The notes beneath the pieces were generated by a model. It searched no databases, was not told where the DNA came from, and saw only the letters and a list, made by a program, of their open reading frames with translations. Made by a program: the position numbers and the translations under genes. Positions 2,706 through 47,675 of a stretch of DNA of 47,675 bases are shown piece after piece (position 1 is the first letter of the stretch; each line of letters begins with the position of its first letter). Source of the DNA: Eledone cirrhosa (lineage: Eukaryota); the NCBI GenBank assembly GCA_964016885.1, contig CAXHJY010000350.1, positions 1-47,675 of the forward strand, given 5' to 3'.

Positions 2706-5280
<2,575 letters not shown>

Positions 5281-6284: not shown

Positions 6285-6630
6285 AATGATTTCATGTATC
6301 GGCCGCAAGGGCCGACATAAAGGGGGAACACAATAACAACTGTCAATGAGGACCGGTTCCTCAATAGGGAGAGGGGCTGTACTTTAGGGTAATTCCAGTT
6401 ATAATTCTACACAAAATCCTGGATCGCTCTGTTGCCTCGCGGCCATTAAAATCACCCTTTTCTGGTTTCTTTCCACCTGCTTAGGAAAAAAACATAATCA
6501 GAGTAGGTCCATTCAAACTCGTCAATGTCAGTTCTCACCCATCTTTCATAGAATACACTAGAAGGCAGCAGCTCCCCTCCCTGCCCTCACCTTCCTCTTC
6601 AAGTGGAACCTGAAGAGGAAGGTGAGGGCT
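6285..6630 (-). mobile_element. L1/Tx1-like LINE 3' end with a small terminal inversion
   Basis: Minus strand reads FRFHLKRKVRAGRELLPSSVFYERWVR followed by a 3'UTR-like tail. A 19-bp inverted repeat gccctcaccttcctcttca / tgaagaggaaggtgagggc lies at the truncation point. Clade assignment is from recollection. Confidence 0.5.
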
Positions 6631-9428: not shown

Positions 9429-10913
9429 AGGCATTACGTACGGCACTACGATAGTATAACCGTCTTGTTCTAAAAGATGAAGTCACTGCGTACGTGAAGG
9501 GAGACAGAGCCAAGAGGTGTTGAGGGCGGCGGTGGTGGTGGTGGTGGGGGAGGGGGGCGAATATATGTTGGGAAGCATCTTTATCCGACGACAACCTTAG
9601 TTTCGTTAATAGGCCCCACGCAAACACAGAACCCATGCAGGTGGCACAAACACGCATACACCCTCAAGCGAACACGATCAAGTCTTAGGTGTCGGTGGTG
9701 TGTGTTACATAAGTGCCTACATTACATTCATAAATAAATATATGCATAAATGATTACAAATATACAAGAGTCGACCTAAAATTTCTTAGGCTGAAAAGTT
9801 CATAGGCTGACCCAAATACTCACATGGAATGATCAAATGAGGTTTATTTTTAAACATAGTTCCTGAAAAGAAACAATGCAGTTAACGAAATGCACGGGGT
9901 ATAAACAAAAAATTCGTTGTAACGAAAACTTCTTTATAATGAGACCGACCGAAACAGATCGAGTATGTGGCCGGAAATTGAAAAAATGTTGTTATACTGA
10001 AAAATTCGTTCTAATCGTATTCGTTTTAACGGAATTTTACCTGTATTGGTAAAAAATATATTCGTAACAGCATATATTAGTAAAAAATATATATATTGGG
10101 TCATCAAGTATGAAATTTGTAGAAATTTGTAGATAAAACACAAATTTCTACAGATTTCATACTTGACAACCCAATATTAGTAACAACAGTAAAAAATATG
10201 ATAATAAAAAAAAGCATGTTAATAAAAAACATACAAGTAAAAACATATTAGTAAAATCATATTGATAAAAATAAAACATTTGTAAGCGGCTGACAACATT
10301 CCAGATGCCAGGCGCCCAATCTTGGCCTTAACCCAGGAGAGCAGCTTCGTCAAATAGATGAACAGTATGAAGAACCTGCCTGACAAACGGCTAACACACC
10401 TGTTCGCCGTTGGAGAACGTCTGCGAATGCCGCAGCCCCGGTACATGACAGGGAAGGTGGGCCTCTGTGGGATTTGAACTTAGAAAGCAGAGAACTAGAG
10501 ATAATACATACAACCATCGTTCTTTCTAATTTTTTTTTGTTTGTTTGTTTGTTTTGTTTTGTTTTTACCAACCTCTGAGCGGAACGTTTAATGCTTTGAG
10601 CAAACATATTTTAAATTCAAAGCTACTGTGTGGCAACATTTCAAAGCTACTAAACAACCAGATTTTGATGTGTGTGGCACCAATGTAGCGACTGTGCCGT
10701 TACGCATCCTCGTTTCTTAGAGGAAACGTTTACCAGAAAGCATCTCACCCATCCATCGCCCAAACAAACCCATTTAATCCAACATGCTACTTTATTTTTA
10801 AAGACCTGAAGAAAATAAAAAGAAATGTTAGAATACATAGACAGCTGGAACAAATACCATGAATTATCTCATCCGAAGTTTTAGCAATTTCACCCAATCC
10901 ATCTCCACGCTCA

Positions 10914-11650
10914 ATTGGTATTTTTATTGATCCCGGAATGAAAAGATCACAGGCAGCTGATCTCGACAGGATTTGAACTCAGAAGGTAGAGAGCTGGGAC
11001 AAATAGGTGCACTAGTACTATATTTTATCGACCCCGGAATGAAAGGATGAAAGACAAAGTTGATCTCCGCGGGATTTGAACTCAGAACTCAGAGAACCGG
11101 AACAAATACCCACGGGGCATTTTATGACGCTCTTAGTTCATAGTCTTGATATCAACCTCCATGAAACCGTCTCTGTTTGTTTTAAAGTGTTTATATTTAT
11201 CTAAAAATCCTCCTACATAATTTTATGTAAGAACCTTTGTTATATTTCAAACACCATCTTAATAATTATTTCTACTTTAGGCTCAAGGCTAATCATTTTA
11301 GTTGAGTTAAAGACAGTTAAATCGACCTCAGTACTTTACAAATATTTTATTCTAGATCAGGAGGATGAAAGGCAAAGTTGAGCTCAACAGGATTTGAAAC
11401 CAGAATGTTGAGGTCAACTTTGCCTGTAAGAAGATACTGCAGTGCATTTCATTTGATGCTCTACTGACTATGCCAATTCCTTGTCCTTAAACACAATCTT
11501 CATAATTGATTCTACCTTTAGCAGGAGGCCAGCAATTTGAAGGAAAGGAGAAAGTCGATTAAATCGACTTCAGTGCATTACAGGTACTTTATTTTATCGA
11601 CACCGTAAGCGTATTGTCCGACACTCTATCGATACTGCAAATCTAGGACT
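10914..11650 (-). mobile_element. Cluster of degenerate main-family SINE copies
   Basis: Repeated ggatttgaactcagaa, atgaaaggcaaagttga and tttattttatcgac motifs. Confidence 0.7.
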
Positions 11651-14358: not shown

Positions 14359-14515
14359 TAATAAATGTGAAGACTAAAATCCGAAGAGGGCTGGATAAGG
14401 ATAAATATATATATAAATATATATAAAAACCGTAGAGCAAATATTTATTAAAATAACAGATTAAGGTTTAAGCAATGAATCGCTGCTTTCACCCTTTTTC
14501 TTAAACTTTAATCTG

Positions 14516-14560
<45 letters not shown>

Positions 14561-15720: not shown

Positions 15721-15864
15721 AACTTAAGGAGTCGTTCCGATTGTTTGACAAAGATGGCGATGGTTCAATATCTACAGAAGAATTACGTAAGGTACTCCGA
15801 GACTTGGGCCAGTATCCTTCAGTTGATGAAATACGACAGATGGTACAGGAGATCGATATTGATG
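15721..15864 (+). CDS. Calmodulin-like gene exon: EF-hand 1 and start of EF-hand 2 (ELKESFRLFDKDGDGSISTEELRKVLRDLGQYPSVDEIRQMVQEIDIDG)
   Basis: Acceptor ...aaatctag, donor atg|gtaagt. 144 nt, phase 1/1, the same size and boundaries as the equivalent calmodulin exon. Canonical loop DKDGDGSISTEE. Confidence 0.96.
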
Positions 15865-17377
15865 GTAAGTAAAGAATATTTCATGTTATTTTACCCTTTA
15901 GCATTTAAACCGGCCATATCCGGCTAGAATTGTCTCACCTATTTCTGTTCAAACCGGCTGTAGTCGACCACTCATACTCATGTTAAGGTATTGTTCTCAA
16001 AATAAATAATATCCAGATTTCATAGATTGGATATTATGTGAGATAATTATGTGAGGTAAAGCCTTTACCACAAAAATACAATAGTATATCTAGAGTAATA
16101 AAGGGTTAACCCTTTAGCATTTACGATTTACTGTTTTCGATGTTCATCTACATACGGAATGGTCCTCTGTCGGTTTAAATGATGATATTTCAGGTGTCCC
16201 ATCAACTGTACGTCTAACTCGTGGAATTAACGTACAAGTCGATGAACATTCCACAGACATCTGTACCCCTTAACATAATTCTCAGGGAGATTCAGAGTGA
16301 CACAGTATGTGACAAGACTAATCCTTTGAATCACAGTCCATCTTTTACTACGTTAGCTCAAGAGTCGGACGATCGAATCGGATGACTGAATGAATACTCG
16401 TCGTCGAAACGGACGGAGGATTCAGGATTGTTATTAGGTGAGGAGAGTTTCGGAGGCCATATTGTGACTGAGAAACTCTCTCGAGATTCTGGTAACTTCT
16501 AACAGATATCATGATACATTCAACAAATCTTGAGACATTTCTTCTGGAAACAGAAATACCATTACAACAACAACAACAACTACAACACCACCAACAACAA
16601 CATCAACAATAAATTCTTTTCCATAAATCTAAAAGTTAAGAAAAGTGAAGTATAGATAGAAAAAAACAAACAAAAATAAACGGTGCATGATTCGAGCACG
16701 TGACTTCGAAATGAAATTCTTGAAAAATTTCGCAAATTCTTCACTTTAAAATTATTTTTTGTTATTTTTTAATTGAATTTTTTTTCAATTAAATTTCCTT
16801 TTTTTTTAAACTTTTTTTTTACTTTCCAAAGATTTGCAACGAGAAATCTTCAGTTTAGGCATTTTTTTTTTCTTCTTCTTCTTCTTCTTCTTCTTCTTCT
16901 TCTTCTTCTTCTTCTTCTATCTGTTGACAACATCGTTGACGTAGTTGTTTTTGTTGAGGTTCTTGCTGTTAATGTTAATTTTGTTGTTGTTGTATTTCTA
17001 GTTAGAGCGGATACTCAACTTATTTTATTGTTGTTATAAGTGTTGTGGTACATCTAATTGACTGAGTCGTTAAAACGTCGGGTAGAATGTTTTGCAGTAT
17101 TTGTACCACCGGTTAGCTGTGCTCCTTGAGTTCAAATCCCACAGAGGTCAACTTTGCCTTTCATCTTTCTGATGTCGATAAAATTAGGCTAATTAGCCAA
17201 TGTATACTTTAGAGAATACTATATGTTGTGTGAGAACACGACCCCCCCCCCCCCCCGGCGAGAATGGGCTAGACCACTTCATATAGATAGTAGCGGCCTG
17301 AGTAAGTGGGCAACTCTGTACTAGTTCCACAGTTCGTGTGTTGATAGTCGAAGTAGGTACGAATTCCACAGTTCGTG

Positions 17378-17413
<36 letters not shown>

Positions 17414-17429
17414 TAAAATAACAGATTAA

Positions 17430-17480
17430 AGTTTAAGCAAAGAATCGCTGCTTTCACCCTTAACGGGATCTTCTGAAACT
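17430..17480 (-). ncRNA. Hammerhead ribozyme motif with one core substitution (CAGAAGA); partial sister copy at 22268-22312 (+)
   Basis: Minus strand reads agttt-CAGAAGA-t-ccc-gttaa-ggg-t-GAA-AGCA-gcgattctt-TGCT-T-aaact. The 22268 copy retains TGAAGA but lacks the 5' strand of stem I. Confidence 0.58.
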
Positions 17481-17732
17481 AAACAAGTCAATCTGTGAAC
17501 GCAGAAGTAACTATTTCAAAAAACGTTGCAGCCGGAGGAAGACAGGAAGACGATATTTTGGTTCGTGGAAACGTTCCCTATACAAATAAGTAATGGTATA
17601 AACATAACATATACTTAGCTACCACATCAAGACGTAAAATATCCGCGTATAGTTTGTACTTTATATATATATAAACATTTTTGGAAGAAACAGGGAGCTG
17701 TGTGGTTATTTGATAAAGTGTATTTGAAAATA

Positions 17733-17868
17733 AAAGGAAAGCACAAACGGGGGACAATCCCTTCTTCACTTGTCTGCTGGAGATCACGGACATTTCAACG
17801 CATTAAATGTCCGTGATCTCCAGCAGACAACTGAAGAAGGGATTTGTCCCCCGCTTGTGCTTTCCTTT
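17733..17868. repeat. Near-perfect inverted repeat (about 63-bp arms, 9-nt loop) next to (TA)n
   Basis: aaggaaagcacaa...ggagatcacggacattt followed by aaatgtccgtgatctcc...ttgtgctttccttt. Confidence 0.85.
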
Positions 17869-17880
17869 CATTATATATAT

Positions 17881-18060
17881 GGATTGGCAGTATTGGTAGA
17901 GGGTCGGACACCATGCTTTCCAGCATAGTTACGTCCCTTTACGATCTGAGTTCAAATCCTGCCGAGGTTGACTTTGCCTTTCATCCTTACGGGGTCCATA
18001 AAATAAAGTACCAGTAATGCACTGGGTAATTGCTGGCCTTGTGCCTAAAGTAGAAACAAT
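17881..18060 (+). mobile_element. Near full-length main-family SINE (degenerate copy also at about 17055-17185)
   Basis: ggattggcagtattggtagagggtcggac...gagttcaaatcc...gtagaaacaat. Confidence 0.88.
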
Positions 18061-18227
18061 TATATATATATATATATATGAAATATATGGAGAATAGAAA
18101 TGGCTGTGTAGTTACTATTTAAGGTAACTTAAAATGCAGTGGGAATACGAAGAAAGCAAGAACAGGGGGGAGGGGAGTTTTCCTCATCAGTTGTCTACTG
18201 GGGTCTTGGATATTTCTGCGCTTTAAA

Positions 18228-18273
<46 letters not shown>

Positions 18274-18444
18274 TGGCCATACTCGATAACGAGGGGGCAG
18301 CCATCATATATATATATATATATATGTTTGTGTATATATATATATATATATGTTTGTGTATATATATGTATATATATATAAGTTTGTGTATATATATGTA
18401 TTTATATATATATATGTATGTATATATATATATATATATATATA

Positions 18445-18659
18445 CGTAGGTCCCGGGTTGAGTCGGGGATAACCACAGTAAGTAAGGTACTCAATACATG
18501 GCAGAGTAACATTTTTTTATTTTATAGAAGGAGCTTCTACAGGACTAGTACTGTTTCATTCAGATGAAATCTTCAGGAAGCTCCTGAAGCTTCCTGAAGA
18601 TTTCATCTGAATGAAACAGTACTAGTCCTGTAGAAGCTCCTTCTATAAAATAAAAAAAT
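18445..18659 (-). mobile_element. Penelope-like pseudo-LTR remnant with perfect 72-bp inverted duplication, embedded in (TA)n
   Basis: Arms 18511-18582 and 18588-18659 are exact reverse complements around a 5-nt loop and contain the hammerhead. The tail 18445-18508 recurs in the opposite orientation at about 47594-47655. Confidence 0.62.
18588..18638 (+). ncRNA. Type I hammerhead ribozyme motif (mirror copy on the - strand at 18532-18582)
   Basis: agcttc-CTGAAGA-t-ttc-atct-gaa-t-GAA-ACAG-tactagtc-CTGT-A-gaagct: 6-bp stem I, core CUGANGA and GAAA, short stem II closed by U.U, 4-bp stem III, GUA cleavage triplet. Confidence 0.72.
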
Positions 18660-18726
18660 ATATATATATATATATATATGTATGTGTATATATATGTGTA
18701 TGAATATATATGTATGTATATATATG

Positions 18727-18759
<33 letters not shown>

Positions 18760-19055
18760 TTGTATTTTTATCTAGTTCATTATGTCCTTCAATTATTCCT
18801 TCTGTCCCACCAAGAGCCCCTTCCTCCCAACTATTATCCTTAGAAATCGATCTCAACAGGAACATTTACCCTAATCCAAAATCAATATAAGCCACATGGC
18901 CAGGTACAACGAAGTTTATCATTTTCAGCTAATCTTGTCAATACCCTATCTCTTTTCTTTCTCTCTCTGTCTCACTCTCTCTATCTCTCTCGAACCACAC
19001 ACACACATGCACACACACATATATATATATGTATATACATATATATATACATATT

Positions 19056-19111
<56 letters not shown>

Positions 19112-19130
19112 AATAAATATATATACACGT

Positions 19131-19171
<41 letters not shown>

Positions 19172-19211
19172 TATATACACGTGTTTATATATATATATAT
19201 ATATATGTATA

Positions 19212-19266
<55 letters not shown>

Positions 19267-19349
19267 ATATATGTTTATTTATATATATATATATATATGT
19301 TTATATATATATATATATATGTTTATTTATATATATATATATGTTTATT

Positions 19350-19658
<309 letters not shown>

Positions 19659-19896
19659 GTGTTTATATATATATATATATATACACACACATATATATAT
19701 ATATGTGTGTGTGTATGTATAAATATATAAATATATATACGCACGTACATACGTATATTCCCGCCGTGTATGTGTGAATGTATGCATATGTATGTGTGCA
19801 TGTGTGCATATGTATGTGTATGTGTGTGTATGTAGAACCACTAACTACAGTGTTTAGTGTTTGGTCGCAGTAATTAGCAACCACATTGCAAAGGTT

Positions 19897-20002
19897 TCTT
19901 CTTCTTCTTCTTCTTCTTCTTCTTCTTCTTCTTCTTCTTCTTCTTCTTCTTCGCCCACGTATTCCTGAGAGAGCCGTGGGGGCAGAGTCCTCACATGCCG
20001 TG
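19897..20002 (-). mobile_element. Very short 3' end of the same RTE family with (GAA)n tail, opposite orientation
   Basis: The reverse complement ctgcccccacggctctctcaggaatacgtgggc(gaa)n matches ttgcccccacgactctctcaggaataagtggac(gaa)n at about 20789-20878. Confidence 0.8.
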
Positions 20003-20055
20003 TGTTCAGCTCCTTTCTCCTACAACGAGTTGTGTCAGGCAGACAGCATCAGCCA

Positions 20056-20370
20056 TGAAAAGACCAATAGAAACATTGTTTATTTGATCTGATCATCAAA
20101 TCAGCTCCTTTCTTCTGACAGGAGTTTTGACCAACAGATAGTATCAGTAATGGAAAGACCAATGGAAACATTGTTTCCTTGGTCTGACCATCAGATCAGC
20201 TCTTTTCTTCTGCCAGGAGTATCAGTAATTGTATCAGCAATCGAAAATCCAATGGAATCATAGTTTAACTGGTCCGATCTGAGGATCGACTCGTTTCTTT
20301 TCTTTTGCTATTAATAGTTACTGACATATTGTTTCAACAATAGAAGGACTAATAGAAACATTGTTTCCTT
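20056..20370. repeat. Degenerate tandem repeat of about 95 bp (3 units plus a partial)
   Basis: The motif gaaa.gaccaat.gaaacattgttt recurs near 20056, 20152, 20243 and 20343. Confidence 0.65.
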
Positions 20371-20424
20371 AATGAGATTTATCTTTCCGTTTCTTTTACC
20401 TTTTTTTTTTTACTGCTGTTGTCA

Positions 20425-20878
20425 GTAAAGAATACGATCGCGAATACAAACGGCCGAAATGGGATTCCTCCGAAGGTTCTTTGGAGTAACGTTACTCGAT
20501 AAAGTGCATAGCTCGGAGTTCGGAGAATCACTTCAGGCAGAGCTGCTACTTCTCCGAATTGGGAGATCGCAGCTGCAAAACTATGGACATAAGGTAGAAT
20601 GTCTCAGGAAAGAATCGCTGGACAGATTTTACAGACAAAACCAACCAGTAAGAGATCCAGGGGTAGACCCCGAGCAAGATGGCTGGATGACATCCATGAG
20701 CTTGGCTAATCACGCTTGGAGGATCCAACCGGATCAATTGGAGACGGTTGCTTCTGACAGGACTTGTTGGAAGGAGAGTTTAAAGATTTTGCCCCCACGA
20801 CTCTCTCAGGAATAAGTGGACGAAGAAGAAGAAGAAGAAGAAGAAGAAGAAGAAGAAGAAGAAGAAGAAGAAGAAGAA
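20425..20878 (+). mobile_element. RTE-clade LINE 3' fragment with (GAA)n tail
   Basis: RSRIQTAEMGFLRR..GVTLLDKV..LLLRIGRSQL..YGH and, after a frameshift, KRSRGRPRARWLDDI, typical of an RTE ORF C-terminus. Stop at 20815, then (GAA)n. Confidence 0.85.
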
Positions 20879-21272
20879 ATTGTCAGGTCACGGGCCAAAG
20901 AATTCCCATTCAGATCGTTATCTTATGTTATATGGGGTAATTTGGAGGTAAATTTAGCTGTTGTTTTTCGTGGCATATCAAGGGTATCAACGATGGGGTG
21001 ATCCTCATGAAGCAGGTATCATCTGTGTTAAGGTGTGATGCTTTATTTTATAACATAGTGTATTATTTCTCAAATAATCCTTGTTAATGATCTCGGGTGG
21101 AAGTCACTTATTTTAACCCATTTTTAAAACAATTTTGCTTAACTTATTTCATTTTTATGTTTTTTTTATTTCATTTTTATTTCATTAACATTTTGTTGTT
21201 GTTGTTGTTGTTGTTTCCTTCGTAAAATTCAAATGCAACACTTCAGCTGATCTTAATCCTGTGTCAAGTGAT

Positions 21273-21380
<108 letters not shown>

Positions 21381-21430
21381 ATTCTCTACTTCTCTACATA
21401 CCTATCTATATCTCTTATTCCTGCTCGCTC

Positions 21431-21532
<102 letters not shown>

Positions 21533-21534
21533 AT

Positions 21535-22187
21535 AGGTGGCTCGCTGTCTCATCCAAAGACGTGCCCAGAGTCATGCAGACAAAGTTTCCAGCGACAACA
21601 TTGGTGTTAGGTGTCGTCAGCAGTCAAGGTGACGTCATGCCACCTCACTTCTTCCCTGAGGGCCTTAAGCTGAACACCGATGGCTACATCCGCGTTCTGA
21701 GCGAAGTAGTAAAGCTCTGGATCGACCAGGTAGCTGCAGGTAGGCCGTACGTGTGGCAGCAAGACTCAGTGCCCTGCCATACCAGCCGAAAGACCCAAGC
21801 CTGGCTGTCAGAGAACTTCGTCGACCACACTTCACCTGACATCTGGCCTCCCAGCTCGCCTGACTGCAACCCCCTCGACTTCTTTGTGTGGGGCGCAGTG
21901 GAACGAGACACCAACAGATCTAGCTGCAATACGAAAGACGATCTGAAGGCCAGGATCACAAGTGCCTTTAGGAGCCTAAGTCAGGGGACAGTGACGAAGG
22001 CCTGTAGCCGGTTCCGAGGCCGCCTTGAGGCCGTTATCAAAGCCAATGGCGGGTTTATCGAGTGAGATCGAAAGAACAAGTCATGAAGACAAACTGACCC
22101 AAGTTTGATAAATAAATCTTAAAAAATAAAACTAGTGTTATTTTTTCCTAGACAGTAATCTTGCGAACAGATATCGTCCGCACCCTG
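21535..22187 (+). mobile_element. 5'-truncated Tc1/mariner transposon, DD37D (maT) transposase C-terminal half plus right TIR
   Basis: Open frame to the stop at 22065 with WQQDSVPCH...WPPSSPDCNPLDFFVWG; 37 residues counted between the 2nd and 3rd catalytic Asp. Ends ...gtccgcaccctg (CAGGGTG-type TIR) before (TA)n. The ORF-track N-terminus is only microsatellite. Confidence 0.9.
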
Positions 22188-22189
22188 AA

Positions 22190-22271
<82 letters not shown>

Positions 22272-22459
22272 GATCCCGTTAAGGGTGAAAGCAGCGATTC
22301 TTTGCTTAAACTTTAATCTGTTATTTTAATAAATATTTGCTCTACGGTTCTTATATATTTGATATATATTTTCCTTATCGAGCCCTGAAAGCAAAACCTT
22401 TTGCTTTTAAGAAACCACTGGTAAATGGAATAATTGCCTTATGTTGTTTATTACATAAT

Positions 22460-22518
<59 letters not shown>

Positions 22519-22887
22519 TCATCTCTGTCTCATCTCTCTCTCTCTCTCTCCATCGATCCACCCCCTCTCTATCTATTAATCTCTCATTATCTTTCTTTCC
22601 TTCTATTTCTCTATAAATCTTACCAAAAAATGTTTATATTTATTTTTTATTTTTTTTTTTAAATTTATTCTTTTTACTTTTTTTCCAAAACATTTTGTCT
22701 CCTTCTTACATCATTTTCGAAAGATTATTTTCATCTCAGTGACATATAGAAGATATTAAATCTAATCTTTTAATTCACGGACTACATCTTATATATGTAA
22801 CCGAAGCAGACTGGGTCTTAAAACTGTCACTGTCATTCTGGTGTCAGTAACAATAAACTGCTAACTACTGGGGGGGGGGGGGGGGGC

Positions 22888-23590
22888 AGAGGTGTGACTT
22901 CACTGCTCAGCTAAGATGACACTGACTAACAGACTACTGAGGGCTAGAGGTGTGTTTTTACTGCTCAAGTAAGGTGACACTGACTAACAGACTACTGAGG
23001 GCTAGAGGTGTGTTTTTACTGCTCAGCTAAGGTGACACTGACTAACAGACTACTGAGGGCTAGAGGTGTGTTTTTACTGCTCAAGTAAGATGACACTGAC
23101 TAACAGACTACTGAGGGCTAGAGGTGTGTTTTTACTGCTCAGCTAAGGTGACACTGACTAACAGACTACTCAGGGCCAGTGGTGTGTTTTAACTGCTCAG
23201 GTAAGGTGACACTGACTAACAGACTACTCAGGGCCAGTGGTGTGTTTTAACTGCTCAGCTAAGGTGACACTGACTAACAGACTACTCAGGGCCAGTGGTG
23301 TGTTTTAACTGCTCAGGTAAGGTGACACTGACTAACAGACTACTCAGGGCCAGAGGTGTGTTTTTACTGCTCAACTAAGGTGACACTGACTAACAGACTA
23401 CTGAGAGCCAGAGGTGTGTTTTCACTGCTCAGCTAAGGTGACACTGACTAACAGACTACTGAGGGCTAGAGGTGTGTTTTTACTGCTCAGCTAAGGTGAC
23501 ACTGACTAACAAACCACTCAGGGCCAGTGGTGTGTCTTCACTGCTCAGGTAATGTGACACTGACTAACAAATAGCTGAAGGTCAGAGATG
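22888..23590. repeat. 58-bp minisatellite, about 12 copies
   Basis: Unit gaggtgtgtttttactgctcagctaaggtgacactgactaacagactactgagggcta; period measured from 22921 to 22979. Confidence 0.93.
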
Positions 23591-23591
23591 T

Positions 23592-23770
23592 GTTTTCATT
23601 GCCCAGCTAATAATCGACCCCAGTACTAGGCTGGTACTTTTTTTAATCAACCGCCAAAGGATTAATGGTAAAGTTGACCTCAGTGGGATTTGAACTCAGA
23701 ACACAGAACTAGAACAAAGACTGTAAAACATCCTATCCAATATTCTAACAACTCTGCCTATTCGCCGCCA
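23592..23770 (-). mobile_element. Degenerate main-family SINE
   Basis: atcgaccccagtac...aaagttgacctcagtgggatttgaactcaga...ctctgcctattcgccgcc. Confidence 0.7.
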
Positions 23771-24902
23771 GTTCTACTGCGCATTTATATAAAACAGTTA
23801 TATATAATATAACTGTATATTACAGTTTTATAAACCATTTATATGATTTAGCTGTGTAGTCCAGTTACAGAAAATATCTGTATATAGTAGATATATATAG
23901 CTGAAAAGAGTAGAGCTTTATAAAACAGCTACACGATACACTAAGCTATATTACACACCATTTAGCTATAAAGATATCTAAATCTAGGATTAGAAATGAC
24001 AGAATCTAACAGATTAAATGAAATACAATGAAGATATAACACCATCTTATTTCTGATTTTATGAGATTTAACGTCGATGTTTGATTGGTTGAAGCTGAGA
24101 GAAGTAAAAAAAAAAAATAGATTCATCTTTTACACATAATTGTTATGGGGAAGTGAAAAGAAATTAAGAAATACTTCGCTATCTCACTGTTGTAAGTTCA
24201 AATCTTAACAAAATCAACCTTCTTTTACTGGCTGCTTCTTATTTTTGTTCGTTTTTGTTATGAAGGTAGGACCATATTAAACCATGACTGAGCCCTTATG
24301 TTTTCAGCTATTTCGGGGTTCCTTTCACCATCAAGCCATTAAAAGGGAAAACAAAAAGAAAAGAAAAAAAAAAAATTGTAGGCTCTTAGTTCCTGTAGGG
24401 CTCCAGGTTTCAACCTAGTCAGTATATGAATAATAACCCCCTTTATTGAAGGGGTGAAGAGGTACTTAGCTGTCCCACTGTCGTAAGTTCAAATATTAAC
24501 AAAATCAACCATTTTTTCACTGGCTGTTCATTTTTGTTGCTTGTAATTTTTTTTTTACTTGATTAATGGTTACGGGGTGGGAATGAATTTAGTAATACAG
24601 GTAAAATTCCGTATTACGAATACCATTATAACGAATTTTTCAGTATAGCGAAATTTTTTTCAATCCCCGGCCACACGCTCGATGTGTTAGGTCGATCTTG
24701 TTATAAAGAATTTTTCGTTACAACGAATTTTTTTATACCCCATGAATTTCGTTATATCGGAATTTCACTGTATTAACTTTGAACATCCTCTAATGATTTA
24801 GCAGAAAATGCATTAAAAAGAGTTTGTTAATTCAAATATTAACAATATCTTTACTAGTGGACAGATCATTGTGAACATTTATATTGTTAAAGTACAGACT
24901 TA

Positions 24903-25312
24903 AGGCGGTGGATTGGCGGAATCGGTAGAGCGTCGGACAACATGCTTAGTGGCATAGAGTTATGACCTTTTACGTTCTGAGTTCAAATCCCACCATGATT
25001 AGCTTTGCCTTTCATCCTTACGGGGGGGTCGTTGAAATGCAATACCAGTAATGCACTGGGGTTCGATTTAACCGACTTTCCATTTCCCCCCAAAATTGTT
25101 GGCCTTGTGCCTAAATCAGAAAACATTGGGATTGGCAGTATCGGTAGAGCGTCAGACACCATGCTTTGGAGTATAGAGTTATGGCCCTTTACGTTCTGAG
25201 TTCAAATCACGCCGAGGTTAACTTTGCCTTTCATCCTTACGGGGGGTCGATATAATAAAGTACCAGTAATGCACTGGGGTAATTGCTGGCCTTGTGCCAA
25301 AAGTAGAAACAA

Positions 25313-25315
<3 letters not shown>
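24903..25315 (+). mobile_element. Two tandem main-family SINEs
   Basis: Heads at about 24903 (ggcggtggattggcggaatcggtagagcg) and about 25128, each with B-box, core and tail. Confidence 0.87.
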
Positions 25316-25348
<33 letters not shown>

Positions 25349-25654
25349 TTTTTTTAATGTCTTGCTGATGTGGTTTCATGTGGTACAGGATGTTAAAAGT
25401 GAATACATAAGTTCTTTGAAATGTTCGTCAGAGGTGTCAACTGATATTAATTAACTATTATTTTTTCTAAGTAGATAGTGTTAGTATAATTAGTGTGTGG
25501 AGGTGGTGGTGGTGGGGTTACTGTGGTGGGGGGAGGGAGAATGAGTGCATAGCGGTGGTGGGAGTGGGGATAGAGGAGGTAGTAGGGCTGGAATATCAGA
25601 TTTATTGAAGGAAATGAATGAGCAGAAAGTCAGGAAAGCATTCTCATTGTACAT

Positions 25655-25720
<66 letters not shown>

Positions 25721-25724
25721 GTGT

Positions 25725-25760
<36 letters not shown>

Positions 25761-25846
25761 TGTATGTACTGTTTATATACACATACAGTATATACACACG
25801 CTCTATATATTGTATATATACAGTGTGTGTGTGTATATATATGTAT

Positions 25847-25909
<63 letters not shown>

Positions 25910-26018
25910 GTGTGTATATATATGTATATATATATATATATATATACACTATATGTATTGTTTATACACATACAGTATATACACACGCTGTATATATTGT
26001 TATATTGTATATATACAA

Positions 26019-26050
<32 letters not shown>

Positions 26051-26055
26051 CATAC

Positions 26056-26172
<117 letters not shown>

Positions 26173-26291
26173 GTATATATACACACTGTATGTACTGTTT
26201 ATTTACACACGGTGTATGTATTGTGTATATACATGTATACACAAACGTGTGTGTGTATGTACATGCATAAACGAGCATGTATATACATAGT

Positions 26292-26680
26292 GGGACGTAG
26301 TAAGGCTAAATGGTTAAGAAGTCCGCTTCGCAATCATTAGATCTCAGGTTCAATCCCACGACCTGGTATGTTGGACAAGTGTCATTTACCATAGCCTTGG
26401 TTTCACTCAAACCTTGTGAGTGAAATTGGGTAGACAGAAACTGTGTGGAAGTCTGTCAGATGGATTGTAACTGACATATTTATGAATTGTTTGCTGTTGT
26501 TGGACCTCCGTCAGTTTCGACCGCGAGTGTTCCGGTTGTTTAAACAACGGAAATGTCAGCTCGTGAAATTACTGAGCAAGTGCCTGAGCATTCCAAAGGT
26601 ACGTACACCTTTTAATGTATTATTCATGGAGCTACAGTGTTGCGTAGATGTAGCAAAGCTGTGTGGACTGGAGAAACATA
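26292..26680 (+). mobile_element. Degenerate SINE-type repeats (tRNA-like head plus a segment also seen at about 16163-16335)
   Basis: ggctaaatggttaagaag...caggttcaatccca head; ctcgtgaaatta...agcattcca...gtacacc.ttaa is shared with 16218-16290. Confidence 0.55.
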
Positions 26681-26753
26681 GAGCCACGAATCAAACTCCC
26701 CTTATGATCATTAGCCGAAAGCCCTAACCAAAAAACCACAAACTTTCATTACA

Positions 26754-27130
26754 CAGGTAAAATTCCGTTATAACGAATACCATTATAACGAATTTTTCAG
26801 TATAACGAAATTTATTTTCAATCCCCGAGGTAATAACAAACAAACGGTTGATTTATTTCGGTCGATCTCGTTATAAAGAATTTTTTGTTACAACGAATTT
26901 TTTTCATACCTCGTGAATTTTGTTATAACAGAATTTCACTGTACAGGTAAACATCCGTTATAACGAATACCATTATAATGAATTTTCAGCATAACGAATT
27001 TTTTTTCAATCCCCGAGGTAATGACAATCAAACGCTCAATTTGTTTTGGTTGATCTCGTTATAAAGAATTTTTTGTTACAGCGAATTTATTTTTATACCC
27101 CGTGAATTTCGTTATGACGGAATTTCACTG
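26754..27130 (+). mobile_element. Tandem dimer of an approximately 180-bp TA-flanked MITE (Tc1/mariner-pogo type)
   Basis: TIRs caggtaaaattccgttataacgaa / ttcgttataacggaatttcactg. The two copies (26754-26941 and 26944-27130) share one TA. Confidence 0.85.
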
Positions 27131-27134
27131 TATT

Positions 27135-27576
27135 AATGATTTCTAATTTAGGCACAAGGCCTGCAATTTTGTAAGGGAAAAGAAAGTCGTTTATATCAAC
27201 CCCGGTACTTGACTGGAACTTAATTCAACCATCTTGGAAGACTGAAAGGCAAAGGTGATTCCGGTGGGATTTGAACACAGGATATAAAATCCAGGAACAA
27301 ATTCCGCAAAGCATTTTATCTGACGCTCTAACGATTCTGCCAAACCACCACCCTCCTTTCATATCGAAAAGCCTAGCTTAACTGCTTTCAATATTTTAAA
27401 GATGGCAGTATCGGTAGAGGGTCGGATGCCATGCTTTCCAGCATAGTTACGTCCCTTTACGATCTGAGTTCAAATCCGGCCGAGGTTAACTTTGCCTTTC
27501 ATCCTTACGGAGTCGATAAAATAAGGTACCAGTAATGTACTGGGTAATTGCTGGCCTTGTGCCTATAATAGAAACA
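27135..27576. mobile_element. Divergent pair of main-family SINEs (about 27135-27350 on -, 27403-27576 on +)
   Basis: Family motifs in opposite orientations; the + copy has a 13-bp TSD aatattttaaaga at 27390-27402 and 27577-27589. Confidence 0.82.
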
Positions 27577-28282
27577 AATATTTTAAAGAGCATCTTCAGT
27601 AGGAAGAGCAAACAAAAATAATTAACAAATGCTGTGTTGACAGTTGTAGCAGAATAGCTCCCGCATATATATATTTGAATATAAATTTCTGCGACTCTAT
27701 CACAACACGTAAAGAGAGAGGAGTAGTTTGTCTACCTCATACTACTCCTCTCTCTTTACGTCTGTTACGTGTGTGAATGTATATGTGAATATAAAAGGAA
27801 GGAAGGAAGGAAGGAAGGGGATGGTGAAAAAACTACGCTGGGTGTGTGTGTGTGTGTGTGTATGTGTGTGTGTTTGTGTAAATGTATGTTTGTTTGAATG
27901 TATGTGTATTTTTCCAAAGTATGTCTGTGGGTGTATATTTTTCTAAGCGTGTCTGCGTTTGCATGTTTATATTTATATACTCACTAGCATTAAAGCCCGG
28001 CGTTGTTCGGGGTCAGTAAGTTACCAAAGTTAGGTTGCACCACCCATTTTATGGCAGCACTTTTTTGTCTGCCAGGCACTGGGTGAATGAATTGCAGACC
28101 TGGACTGCCGAAGCAGGAGCTGTGCCAGCAGTGACAATTGTAGTTTCGCCTATGGATATTATCTCTGTGCAAAGGAGTGTTGAAATTTATTGTTTCACAG
28201 TACTTGCGCAACACGCGCGTAGACGATGCCAGCCGAACAACAGAGCTGCGATGGAGTTGTTCTGCATGGTTGTCTAATGTGT

Positions 28283-28462
28283 GTTTTCTAAATTTAAGAC
28301 AGTAGGGAGGGGTGTGATATGGGGGAGAGTTAGCTGCTGTTTCTAGCAGTTTTAGTGACCTCATAGAGGATATGTTTTCTAAATTTAAGACAATAGGGAG
28401 TGGTGTGATATGGGGGAGAGTTAGCTGCTGTTTCTAGCAGGTTTAGTGACCTCATAGAGGAT
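28283..28462. repeat. Direct tandem duplication of about 90 bp (SINE-tail-like)
   Basis: tgttttctaaatttaagaca.taggga...gagagttagctgctgtttctagcag.tttagtgacctcatagaggata appears twice. Confidence 0.85.
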
Positions 28463-29299
28463 ATTATTGTGTATAGTAAATGAACTGATGCTTCTTTCTT
28501 CCACGTTCGTTGATAGATGTTTTAAAAAAGATTTATCGCTATTTTTTGTTGTTGTTGAATAAATTTATCTGTTGCTTTTGAATAATTGTTGTTTCGTATG
28601 AAATGTGATAAGTTCTCTTCGTTGTCATTGAAGTAAATAAATGTTTGACCGTTCCACACTCAAAAACAAACGTTCTCTCTCTCTCTCTCTTAAAGTTTGT
28701 AAGTTTAATCGTATATAAGAGAAAGTTGCAGCATGTATGTAGTTTTATCGAATTTTAAGAGGAGTAGAGAGAGGTAAACTGATTGTATTACAGGGGTAAA
28801 GCGTCATGTATTTAGTTTTATCGATTATTTCCGTAATTGTGGGTGAGTTTGAATGAAATAAATAGTCGTTGACCTAAGTTTGACCATTTACAACATTCTT
28901 ACAGACTTTGAGTCGAATCGGTTTGCAATTGTGCAAATGTATAAACATGGAACATGCACACACACACACACACACAACAACAACAATCTGCCTTTTATAG
29001 GTAATTGTTTCTACTTTTGGCACAATAATGATACATATAAATGTATGCATATGCACATACTCACACGCACGCACATATTCACATACTCGTCAGCTTATGG
29101 AAACAAATTCTAGTATTTGAATAGTTCGGGAATGTCCGTGACTGTACTCGTTCATCGCCGTATAAATTTGGAGCAATAATCTGCGATTAATTGCATATTT
29201 AGCTGAACCGGCGTTTCCATGCAACGACAAAGCTAATAGCCTCTCTATAACGACGATGACAACAACAACAACGACAACAACAAACAAGAAAAGGCACAA

Positions 29300-29444
29300 T
29301 ATTACACACATACACATACACACACACAGAGACACGGACACATACAAAAACAGATGCACACACAATACACACAATACACTCACACAATACTCTCACATAT
29401 GCAAACACACACACACCCACTCATAAATTCATACACGACGAGAC

Positions 29445-29489
<45 letters not shown>

Positions 29490-29729
29490 CTATATTAACA
29501 AGTGATATAGTTTAAAAGCCAATGTTTATAGTTTTACACACACATACAGACACACAGACAGGCTGACACACACACACACGCAGCGCGCGCGCACACAAAC
29601 ACACAGACACACGCGCGCACATACACACACACAGATATACATACAGACAGACAAACTCTCACACACATGCACGCACACACACACACACACACAGACATAC
29701 ATACATATATACAGAGAGACAGACAAACT

Positions 29730-29782
<53 letters not shown>

Positions 29783-30090
29783 CCGTTCAATTACATTTTC
29801 GGTTTGTCTTTTTCCTGAAATTGTGCTTATTATTGGTTTTGAAATTCAATTTATAATTCGTGTGTGTATGTGTGTGTGTATGTGTGTGTGTATGTATGTG
29901 TGTGTATACGTGTGTATGTATGTCTGTGTATGTGTGTGTGTATGTATGTGTGTGTGCATGTATGTATATGCGTGAATGTGTGTGTGTATATGTGTGTATG
30001 TATGTGTATGTATGTGTGTATGTATGTGTGTGTATTTATGTGTGTGTGTATTTATGTTTGTGTGTATGTATGTGTGTTTGTATATGTAAA
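29300..30090. repeat. Degenerate (CA)n block followed by a (TG)n block
   Basis: CA-rich at 29300-29780 and TG-rich at 29860-30090. Confidence 0.9.
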
Positions 30091-31419
30091 TGTCGTTAGA
30101 AGGCACACGTAAGAACATATCAAAGTTGTGGAAGAATCTTTAGGGAACCATTTTCTGGTCAATTTCCTTGCATCAGTGTTGTTTTCTCAACTGATGTCAT
30201 TACAGAATCGCTAATGGCATTTAATTAAAAATCGATTGTAATCTAAAAGCCTGATGTGTCCAATAACGAATGACACAGGAACAAATCCCTTGCTAGGTTA
30301 ATTCACTTTATATAGTTTTATACAGTGTGAGGTTTCCACTACGTTTAAAAATGATTCATACATCTCATTAACCAATGTATCGTTTTCATTTTTTAACTTT
30401 CTCTTTTTTTGAAATTTTTTTGAAATTTTTTTTTTTTATAAAAAAACAATCTAACATAAATCGACAGTCGATCGACTTTCGTCAAATCGGACCGAGGAAA
30501 CAATGTTTCCATTGGTCTTTCCAATTGCTAGTACTATCTTTCGATCGCAACTCCAGGTAGAAGGAGCAACGTGAAATAAAATGTCTTGCTCAAGGACATA
30601 ACGCATCACCCGGTCCGGGAATCGAACTCACAACCTCATGATTGCAAATCTAATTATATAACCACTCAAAATACAGAGAAATAGAAACGAACCGTTATTG
30701 TTTTTTGTTTTTTTTGTTTCGGGAGACAAAACTATATTACGAGGTGGGCCTAGTGAAATGCGGCAAATTAGCATGCTCTTTAGGGTGTCGGGTTGAATAT
30801 GGCTTGTTATTTGTTATTTGTTCTGGATCCTTGCGCTCCGAGTTCAAATCCCGACAGTATCAACTTTGCCTTTCATCATTTCGAGGTCGATAAGTGAAGT
30901 ACTGGGGTAGATTGTAGATTCTTTTCTCTCTCTCGCTCTCTCTCGCTCTCTCTCTCTCTCTCGCCTGTATTTTGACCTAGAGGAAGATGTACACAAGGTT
31001 TATAATGTCCCGAAAGACACCGTATGTCAGAACGTCGCTCAGATGACTCCATCTTAAGTCTTGAATGTATGACTATAATAATGTAGAAGAAAAATAATAG
31101 GGAAGAAAAGGAGCCAATTTTGTCCCTGCACCTGTAAATTCCTCTCTCCCTATCCAAACTCTTCCCTTCTTTCCTTTAAACTCTTCCCTTCCCCGCTAAA
31201 CCCTTCTCTACTCCATCTAAACTCCTGCCTCCCTATCCAAACTCCATCTAAACTGCTCCTTTCCCTCTCTAAACTCCCTTCCCCACTGAACTTCTCTAAG
31301 CTCCTCATTTTTTCTCCAAATTCCTCCTCTAAACTTCTTTCACCCAATATATTCCTGCTTTCACCCAATAAACTGCTCTTTTCTCCCTCTAAAATAATTT
31401 CTGTTTTGTAACATTCCAG

Positions 31420-31529
31420 GTGACGGCAGGTTTTCATTTGAAGAATTTATTCAGTTTATGGAAAACATTGGAGGAATCACAGAAAACAAGGAAGGGGATG
31501 ATGATGAAGAATTGCGACAGGCATTTAAG
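31420..31529 (+). CDS. Calmodulin-like gene exon: end of EF-hand 2 and central linker (GDGRFSFEEFIQFMENIGGITENKEGDDDEELRQAFK)
   Basis: Acceptor acattccag, donor aag|gtaggt, 110 nt, phase 1/0. Completes the loop DIDGDGRFSFEE; EELRQAFK matches CaM EEIREAFR. Confidence 0.94.
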
Positions 31530-31597: not shown

Positions 31598-32208
31598 CCA
31601 CTGGTGCAGCCAGTTGTTGGGGTGCCACTCTAGATGTGCCACTGGTGCAGCCAATCATTGGGGTGCCACAGTAGATATGCCACTGGTACAGCCAGTCGTT
31701 GGGGTGTCACAGTATGTGTGCCACTGGTGTAGCCAGTTGTTAGGGTGTCACACTAGATGTGCCACTGGTGCAGTCAGTCATTGGGGAGCCACACTAGATG
31801 TGCCACTGGTGCAGTCAGTCATTGGGGATCCACACTAGATGTGCCACTGGATCAGTCAGTCATTGGGGATCCACACTAGATGTGCCACTGGTGCAGTCAA
31901 TCGTTGGGATGTCACTCTAGATGTGCCACTGGTGCAGTCAGTCATTGGGGAGCCACACTAGATGTGCCACTGGTGTAGTCAGTCATTGGGGAGCCACTCT
32001 AGATGTGCCACTGGTGCAGTCAGTCGTTGGGATGTCACACTAGATGTGCCACTGGTGCAGTCAGTCATTGGGGAGCCACTCTAGATGTGCCACTGGTGCA
32101 GTCAGTCGTTGGGGAGCCACACTAGATGTGCCACTGGTGCAGTCAGTCGTTGGGATGTCACACTAGATGTGCCACTGGTGCAGTCAGTCGTTGGGGAGCC
32201 ACACTAGA
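31598..32208. repeat. 41-bp minisatellite, about 15 copies
   Basis: Unit ccactggtgcagtcagtcattggggagccacactagatgtg; period measured from 31598 to 31639. Confidence 0.93.
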
Positions 32209-32214
32209 TTTGTT

Positions 32215-32686
32215 CACAGTCAGTCATTTCCACTGGTCTCTATTCTCCGTCATGTGTAGAAAGGTTTCGATGTTGTGACCACTCCAGTCTTTGATGCTGT
32301 CGGACCAGAATTTTCTTTCATTGCTTCTCTTTCGACCTCCATCGACTGTGCTCTGAAGAATGGATTTAGACAAGGAGTTGTGACGAGATATATAACAATA
32401 CCAAGCAAGCTCCTGTCTTTTCACCATCGCAAGAGGTGGTTCCTGTCTGCCAGCATATTTGTTAACTTGTTGCCTGACAAAGCTGTTTGTTTTGTATTCC
32501 GTGAATGGGATGTGTAGCAACGTTCTAAAGCACTTGAGTTCGAATGATTGGATCCTTCATTCCATGTCTGTTGTGAGGGTCCAGCTCCCGCACCCATGTA
32601 AAAGGATCAAAGTCACCAAGGACTTGTATAGTTTGAGATTCGTTGGGAAACTGACGGTGCTGCTTTTCCATATGACTTTCAGCTTT
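32215..32686 (-). mobile_element. RTE-clade LINE remnant, part downstream of the satellite
   Basis: Minus-strand translation AKLKVIWKSSTVSFPTNLKLYKSLVTLILLHGCGSWTL...RIQSFELKCFRTLLHI...LAWYCYISRHNSLSKSILQSTVDGGRKR...W...RDQWK, an RTE post-RT domain with a premature stop. Confidence 0.9.
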
Positions 32687-44524: not shown

Positions 44525-44615
44525 ATGTTCGATAAAAGTGGTACTGGGTACATCTGTGCATCTGACTTGCGAGTTGTGATACAGTGTTTAGGGGAAGACT
44601 TGACCGAAGAAGAAA
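44525..44615 (+). CDS. Calmodulin-like gene exon: EF-hand 3 (MFDKSGTGYICASDLRVVIQCLGEDLTEEE); gene continues past this exon
   Basis: Acceptor ttctattactgttgcag, donor aaa|gtaagt, 91 nt, phase 0/1. Aligns with CaM [30 protein letters not shown]. Confidence 0.94.
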
Positions 44616-46095: not shown

Positions 46096-46100
<5 letters not shown>

Positions 46101-46517
46101 GAGAGTAAAACAAAGAATCCTTTAATACATCAAAAGTTTTTATTAGCCGACAAAACTTTTGATGTATTAAAGGATTCTTTGTTTTACTCTCTTAATTTTT
46201 TGGCTCTGTTTAACTGTATTGAGCTATACCTTTTACTGTCATTTCTATAATACGAAGAGGGTGTTTGACTCAAACACGCTCCAGTATTCTAATCCTTATA
46301 TATATATATATATAGGAACGAGTAGGACCCCCGACGGCTGAGCTCAAGCCGTTTCGACGGCTAATTCTGGACCAGAATTTGGTCCAGAATTAGCCGTCGA
46401 AACGGCTTGAGCTCTGCCGTCGGGGTCCTACTCGTTCCTATTACCCACTCTACTACCCTAAGTATTGAGTACTTTGGTGCGTTATGGTCCACTTGGTTCC
46501 TTACCACATTTCCTTCG

Positions 46518-46561
<44 letters not shown>

Positions 46562-46790: not shown

Positions 46791-46875
<85 letters not shown>

Positions 46876-47045
46876 ACTATAATTCTGGACTAAAATATAG
46901 TCATTTTAGTTCAGAATTAACCGTCGAAACGGCTTGATCTCAGCCGTCGGGGTCCTACTCGTACCTATTACCCACTCTACTACCCTAAGTATTGAGTACT
47001 TTGGTGCGTTATGGTTCATCTGGTTCCTTACCATATTTCCTTCGT
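46096..47045 (+). mobile_element. Cluster of fold-back Penelope-like remnants between (TA)n tracts
   Basis: Inverted repeats at 46096-46140/46152-46196 and 46312-46374/46380-46441. The latter and a second copy at about 46872-47045 carry the 3' half of a hammerhead (GAA-ACGGCT...AGCCGT-C-ggggtcc). Confidence 0.55.
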
Positions 47046-47076
<31 letters not shown>

Positions 47077-47529: not shown

Positions 47530-47571
<42 letters not shown>

Positions 47572-47675
47572 GTTTTAATATTAAAACTTTTATACTCTGC
47601 AATGTATTGAGTACCTTACTTACTGTGGTTACCTCCGATTCAACCCGGAATAACGTACTATACTAATATATATAT

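Follow-up and report, generated by a model that had tools for sequence, protein, structure and literature searches.

A perfect head-to-head duplication of a hammerhead repeat in an intron of a calmodulin-like gene, most likely from a Penelope-like element

The window analysed here, a stretch of 47,675 nucleotides, contains a perfect head-to-head duplication of a high-copy repeat that carries a hammerhead motif. With a probability of roughly 85%, we read it as the 3' end of a Penelope-like element, truncated at the 5' side in both copies, likely of the Hydra type and inserted into a TA microsatellite, the locking of the ribozyme in a hairpin being a predicted by-product. The single locus matters little: it is probably a young copy left by a mobile family, in an arrangement known since at least 2013. 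It is a clean and tiny specimen for how Penelope elements make head-to-head insertions, and also for whether self-locking lets ribozyme-bearing elements survive in introns. The motif adds a hammerhead family that the Rfam models overlook.

The fold-back, its hammerhead motif and the host gene

The arms of the fold-back are exact reverse complements over 72 bp, without a mismatch and with a 5-nt loop between them, see Table 1. The element is thus joined to its own antisense copy, as the original prediction had it. The free energy of the fold-back is -120.7 kcal/mol (z = -25.9), and none of 200 shuffles is as good. The complete identity of the arms suggests a recent insertion. The long 3' end of the element sits on the antisense arm, while the copy that is sense to the host gene is a shorter duplicate.

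Dropping 9 nt from 18577 results in a perfect palindrome centred on AAGCTT, as in other copies of the family. In un-inverted copies the loose ends differ upstream of AGCTTC, and therefore the loop CCTGA is best read as a slipped duplication and not as native sequence. In the minus copy, the loop adds three pairs to stem I (18583-85/18529-31), which are incidental to the junction. A native 9-bp stem I in that copy was considered and dropped, given the same difference upstream of AGCTTC in the loose ends of runs X4, X5 and X10. No 18-mer of the arm is found elsewhere in the window, so there is no cis target for siRNAs within it. The Rfam miRNA models match the fold-back below the gathering score, as a generic hairpin only. 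An AATAAA lies at 18649-18654, in the A-rich linker of the sense arm, and is predicted to be paired within the hairpin.

The type I hammerhead and its mirror stand where they had been placed from the sequence, with the same motif parts and the same predicted cut after 18632. A type I descriptor has exactly two matches in the window, the motif on the plus strand and its mirror on the minus strand, and no match in 400 shuffled windows (100 block shuffles at each of four stringencies). CUGANGA, GAAA and UH occur in order with three helices. Positions 10.1-11.1, which usually hold a G-C pair, are U·U. This is a known variant, to judge from an axolotl retrozyme, HHR_Amex2, with U·U at the base of helix II (in the available part of PMC7229834) and, by eye, from the Hydra consensi discussed below. 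The Rfam hammerhead models had been named as one way to check the motif, and none of them recognises it, either at the gathering score or even at E <= 10. A pattern scan of metagenome contigs gave one match (L001), to the 21-letter pattern only and within unrelated coding DNA, i.e. a chance match, and a scan of viral contigs gave none. Positions 1-1047 of L001 read by eye like phage recA and resolvase genes and are unrelated to the hammerhead.

Judged by energy alone, the active fold of the isolated 51-mer reaches -6.7 kcal/mol versus -9.8 kcal/mol for the minimum, with a probability of 0.001 and a z-score of -0.88; its UUUC can pair with the core GAAA. Loop III retains a CUAG palindrome, and two 51-mers are predicted to co-fold at -30.0 versus 2 x -9.8 kcal/mol, with stems I and III pairing across the strands. 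Such a dimer arrangement is described for animal type I hammerheads in the accessible part of PMC4209133, where Penelope hammerheads are also found to be weak in vitro. According to the part of PMC11167929 at hand, an Anolis Penelope hammerhead requires its protein.

Table 1. Positions of the fold-back, its hammerhead motifs, its flanks and the host exons in the window.
Feature	Position	Strand	Remark
Host exon upstream of the intron, EF-hand	15721-15864	+	Pfam PF13499, 6e-12, above cut-offs
Left (TA)n-type microsatellite, likely target site	18306-18444	.	Repeat composition
One-sided 66-nt tail	18445-18510	-	Family 3' end at about 18450-18453, then (TA)n
Tail hairpin motif CTCT...GTATTGAG	18490-18506	-	5 occurrences in the window
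Left arm, exact mirror of the right arm	18511-18582	-	Antisense-strand copy
Mirror hammerhead motif	18532-18582	-	Predicted cut at 18538/18537
Loop CCTGA	18583-18587	.	Likely slipped 9-nt duplication rather than native upstream sequence
Right (short) arm, sense copy of the element 3' end	18588-18659	+	Runs straight into (TA)n
Type I hammerhead motif, sense to the host gene	18588-18638	+	Descriptor match; predicted cut after 18632
Stem I AGCUUC/GAAGCU	18588-93/18633-38	+	Hammerhead copy on + strand
Core CUGAAGA	18594-18600	+	Hammerhead copy on + strand
Stem II, 3 bp closed by a U·U mismatch	18601-12	+	Hammerhead copy on + strand
Core GAAA	18613-18616	+	Hammerhead copy on + strand
Stem III ACAG/CUGU	18616-19/18628-31	+	4 bp; GUA at the cleavage site
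Loop III, palindromic	18620-27	+	Hammerhead copy on + strand
Right (TA)n-type microsatellite, likely target site	18658-18749	.	Repeat composition
Host exon downstream of the intron	31420-31529	+	In frame; no Pfam match alone
Third host exon	44525-44615	+	EF-hand match below the curated cut-off

The three exons join as one open calmodulin-like frame on the plus strand with AG/GT ends. Together with the Pfam EF-hand match, this agrees with the intronic location in a calmodulin-like gene proposed originally. The hairpin is inside the 15.5-kb intron 15865-31419, at a distance of 2.6 kb from its donor site and of 12.8 kb from its acceptor site.

The window is otherwise rich in repeats. The largest is an 11.7-kb intronic minisatellite at 32687-44409 (15-bp unit, 787 copies, 92% matches, 57% G+C), which has a strong strand skew and several open frames and ends 115 nt before the third exon. 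Two further minisatellites are found at 22883-23610 (58-bp unit, 12.6 copies) and at 31598-32209 (41-bp unit, 14.9 copies), the latter beginning 70 nt after the second exon. Positions 21538-22065 resemble the 3' part of a Tc1/mariner-type transposase (Pfam DDE_3, E 0.005, below the cut-off). Decayed frames at 20429-20812 (plus strand) and 32227-32556 (minus strand) look by eye like the ends of LINE reverse transcriptases, with no Pfam match at E <= 0.01. A direct duplication of 3553-3793 at 4418-4642, with 865-bp spacing and inside a long TA tract, is possibly an assembly repeat.

Relatives in the window and copies in sequencing runs

Both outer ends of the fold-back lie in (TA)n and are unequal, the right arm stopping 66 nt before the end of the left arm. 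In all four runs the loose ends before 18450-18453 are TA-rich, and no target-site duplication is readable within (TA)n. The tail has a second copy at 47593-47648 (93% identical over 56 nt).

Outside the 15-bp satellite, the remaining 35.9 kb of the window hold 10 fold-backs scoring at least 16, versus 2 in 30 shuffles (0.07 expected); those other than the hammerhead fold-back carry mismatches or indels. The tail hairpin CTCT...GTATTGAG, a motif defined after inspecting these loci, is common to five elements of three sequence families. In four of the five the short arm ends 0-7 nt before it, the exception being the 46880 element, and 45-73 nt beyond the hairpin there is a run of TA.

Apart from the locus itself, the TA-flanked fold-back elements with this tail hairpin are at 46096-46298, 46314-46520, 46870-47050 and 47565-47660. 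The last is a tail-only copy of the hammerhead family described here. Within the second, a further type I hammerhead survives at 46314-46441 as its 3' half (GAAA, stem III, UC), the CUGANGA having been lost at the junction. A separate fold-back family on the minus strand (17733-17868 and 18140-18235) has (G)AAA-UGUC preceding GACA-CUGAAGA/CUGAUGA, i.e. in reversed strand order. A third repeat family with a hammerhead-like CTGAAGA...GAAA is present at 14380-14520, 17410-17480 (minus strand) and 22268-22385 (plus strand). Its sense intronic copy at 22268 is cut at C3, its antisense copy at 17470 has an altered core, and 14453-14519 is a fold-back. More fold-backs, with arms of 16-38 bp and some mismatched, are at 1254-1383, 6583-6629, 10093-10177, 11370-11425 and 27707-27761.

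Public sequencing runs contain many copies of the family. The 216-nt stretch is found in 5223 contigs of run X1 and in 4568 and 4681 reads of two reduced-representation runs, all from organism A and mostly less than 95% alike, as well as in 2496 contigs of organism B and 768 of organism E, where read or contig depth does not equal copy number. No RNA run containing the stretch is among the matches listed. Most family reads have one arm only, with unrelated sequence upstream, and these upstream loose ends are heterogeneous (agreement 0.42-0.65).

Four runs from the three organisms (A, B and E) were aligned to the right arm, with reads chosen at 80% likeness or more. At a threshold of at least 10%, the arm shows 16 differences at 12 positions, nine of which are within the 51-mer: N7, all four letters of loop II, one in loop III and three in stem I. 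Among the loop and N7 positions 6 of 13 vary, versus 0 of 26 in the core and stems II and III (Fisher p = 5e-4 at this threshold), so that among these reads stems II and III have no variable position. In stem I, 18593 C>T retains a G·U pair and the other changes are at 18636 and 18638; the two arms of this stem are unphased and the 5' arm is thinly covered. Compared with the common letters of the family, the hammerhead of the 18511-18659 copy has A against T at 18598 and 18621. A signature of A-to-I editing was considered for this copy and rejected, as it would be G against A.

The inversion is also seen in other copies. Of 24 joints in all, 15 are listed; 14 of these lead out of the left part into the right one, at differing places, and one runs back as a tandem would (18636 to 18599); most joints have sides of less than 30 letters, and X1 record 6 alone clearly has 31 letters on each side of the centre. 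The centre is crossed with 6-11 gaps in three of eight X1 pieces listed and with 7-10 gaps in four of eight X5 pieces listed, and the omission of 9 letters at 18577 appears in three X5 contigs and one X10 contig. The AGCT palindrome where stem I has its 5' edge is a recurrent site of the join, a hint that two cDNAs annealed through microhomology. In organism E (run X10), the loose ends before 18588 and 18601 show that some copies have a 10-12-nt palindrome, AAGCT AGCTT, at this edge, and it could compete with stem I and favour the fold-back there.

The exact piece with the CCTGA loop is absent from the eight X4 pieces listed; X4 contains the exact right arm and has no depth crossing the loop. 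As no independent run shows the exact loop, the locus may be a polymorphism, may lack coverage or may owe its perfection to polishing. The best run contains 0.59 of the sampled words.

Origin of the inversion and fate of the ribozyme

The locus matches a Penelope insertion on every structural test, and no coding frame is linked to the family. A Penelope-like origin, as proposed from the sequence at the outset, is the most likely one given the inverted, 5'-truncated head-to-head copy, the one-sided 3' tail and the (TA)n target, features that also characterise the Hydra clade. No reverse transcriptase or GIY-YIG frame was linked to the family in reads reaching 30 letters upstream, or by eye in the frames adjoining the locus.

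We suggest that the element's reverse transcriptase-endonuclease would cut both strands in (TA)n and that each of the resulting DNA ends would prime cDNA synthesis on the element RNA, starting at either of two sites some 66 nt apart. The unequal outer ends, one long and the other short, support two such sites. The available part of Frangieh et al. (2024, PMC11167929) shows a Penelope protein cleaving AT-rich DNA on both strands and extending both, with two reverse transcription start sites that bound the tail. Both cDNAs would stop just past the hammerhead and could then anneal through the self-complementary AGCT, giving the palindrome that is seen in other copies. A 9-nt slip would subsequently create the CCTGA loop of the 18511-18659 copy. 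Within the Penelope reading we lean slightly towards this twin priming, and give a smaller share to the snap-back by self-priming that PMC3846280 puts forward.

A perfect 72-bp duplex is a plausible ADAR or Dicer substrate, and the hairpin in the host pre-mRNA would amount to common dsRNA of repeat origin. The original prediction held that the antisense arm, transcribed first, sequesters the ribozyme, and the folding predictions agree with this. In the full context the hammerhead pairs have a probability of 0.0 on either strand and can be forced only at a cost of 79 kcal/mol, and the hairpin dominates from the transcription of nucleotide 18600 onward. No cleavage of the intron is expected, because the hairpin would already have formed by the time the core is finished. 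The nearest-neighbour energies leave out tertiary contacts, Mg2+ and proteins and handle inosine only roughly, simplifications that do not matter as the energy gap is too large. The lock is symmetrical, since the antisense arm is transcribed first from either strand.

It had also been proposed that editing could release the ribozyme, and the simulations do not support this. With A read as G, 71-72 fold-back pairs remain in 1000 of 1000 molecules. Five of the core letters are A, and the core stays intact in 116, 45, 9, 0 and 0 of 200 molecules at 10, 25, 50, 75 and 100% simulated editing. Even when every A of the left arm is made unpairable, 49 fold-back pairs persist and no hammerhead pair forms. 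Editing of such hairpins is plausible, and ADAR may thus wreck rather than free the ribozyme, the lock being predicted to be permanent and not a switch. It can be speculated, tentatively, that the joining of cDNAs at the stem I palindrome acts as a safety catch. Sense ribozymes in introns would then be neutralised in advance and escape purging, and fold-backs every few kb could be a main source of intronic dsRNA for ADAR and Dicer in the lineage; we hold this to be possible, on balance doubtful.

Among the alternatives, the one that survives best is that the parent was not the end of a coding element, and that a non-autonomous hammerhead element (a non-LTR retrozyme or a SINE-like pLTR derivative) was mobilised by Penelope enzymes. 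The full 4-bp stem III, the palindromic loop III and the predicted dimer, which resembles a double hammerhead, would suit such an element. The same is true of the U·U shared with the axolotl retrozyme, and the available part of a preprint (bioRxiv 10.64898/2026.07.22.740005) proposes that retrozymes are pLTR derivatives. Against it, there is no tandem monomer at the locus, a tandem-like return is seen only in the one joint among the 15 listed, and the upstream ends are heterogeneous. We regard it as a minority possibility; it overlaps with the Penelope reading and alters the parent only, not the verdict on the hairpin.

An assembly or library artefact, in which chimeric reads or arm-homogenising polishing produced either the whole fold-back or just the 5-nt loop and the perfect symmetry of the arms, is improbable. 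The absence of the exact loop-spanning piece from the X4 pieces listed and the incomplete word content of the best run speak for it, while near-identical junctions occur in short-read contigs of three organisms, the tail is asymmetric, and the other fold-backs of the window carry mismatches or indels.

Still less probable is a TA-targeting fold-back DNA transposon (MITE) with a hammerhead-like string in its inverted repeats by chance. The locus is short, palindromic, of high copy and TA-flanked like a MITE, but the inverted repeat is not terminal, as one arm extends 66 nt further, the breakpoints of the inversion differ between copies, most family reads have a single arm and unrelated upstream sequence, and conservation tracks the ribozyme fold.

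A special, regulatory role fits poorly with a symmetrical lock, a published Penelope layout, the many breakpoints in other copies and the predicted failure of editing to release the ribozyme. The least probable reading of all is a domesticated switch, in which the fold-back shuts the sense ribozyme until editing, unwinding or a loop-initiated transcript releases it, whereupon it would cleave the intron and adjust the host gene: the core is intact in the sense copy, the position is in an intron of an EF-hand gene and CPEB3, an intronic ribozyme, reportedly has a host effect, but the lock of 79 kcal/mol, the simulated editing that retains the duplex and strikes the five core adenosines, the recent insertion suggested by the mismatch-free arms, the layout common to nine other fold-backs of the window and the distance from both splice sites all argue against it.

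Comparison with known systems

The HH9/HH10 hammerheads and CPEB3 are host-conserved, single-copy ribozymes of introns. Like them, the locus has a self-cleaving motif, here a predicted one, that is sense to the pre-mRNA. Unlike them, it belongs to a mobile family, of which it is probably a young copy, and is predicted to be folded shut. A search of the literature, covering few subscription papers, turned up no paper on this hammerhead family and none on the control of a hammerhead by an inverted copy of itself.

The metazoan non-LTR retrozymes, as described in the accessible parts of PMC7229834 and of bioRxiv 10.64898/2026.07.22.740005, are likewise type I, with a 6-bp stem I and thousands of copies. 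They are often intronic (about 43% of the Xenopus copies). However, they are defined by direct tandem monomers, of which the locus has none.

The Penelope hammerheads of Cervera and De la Pena (2014, PMC4209133) are, in the part of the paper at hand, type I with a palindromic loop III suited to dimers, as here. They are mostly minimal, with a long helix II and G10.1-C11.1, whereas the locus has a 4-bp stem III and a weak stem II closed by U·U. In Schistosoma, pairs of hammerheads on opposite strands are 100-700 bp apart, compared with 5 nt at the locus.

Head-to-head repeats with a junction palindrome are the most frequent arrangement in Arkhipova et al. (2013, PMC3846280), as far as the available text goes. 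The Adineta vaga Penelope elements share with the locus the head-to-head inverted pLTRs, the junction palindrome and a tail on one arm; they differ in having target-site duplications and full frames. The authors explain the inversion as self-priming on an antisense template.

The closest likeness is to the Hydra clade. The accessible part of Craig et al. (2021, PMC8557442) describes EN+ Penelope-like elements with an inverted, 5'-truncated copy and, at one end, a tail of 30-40 bp. In this account the Hydra clade targets (TA)n and has canonical hammerheads, and a Hydra family from octopus is listed. The locus differs from this clade in retaining only about 140 nt of the 3' end, with no coding frame, and in its tail of 66 nt versus 30-40. 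Its sequence also differs from Hydra-1_Obim and the other five consensi. Seven family motifs of 11-12 letters had no match in the supplement as obtained, so none of the published consensi searched there represents the family. In common with the clade it has the inverted, 5'-truncated copy, the one-sided tail, the (TA)n flanks and a type I hammerhead near the 3' end. By eye, three of the six published consensi have a stem II closed by U·U, and one, Hydra-1_Amil, has the same ACAG/CUGU-A stem III. The 3' end of another, Hydra-2_Amil, carries the same tail motif: GTATTGAG occurs three times in the 583,918 characters of the supplement, once in this consensus.
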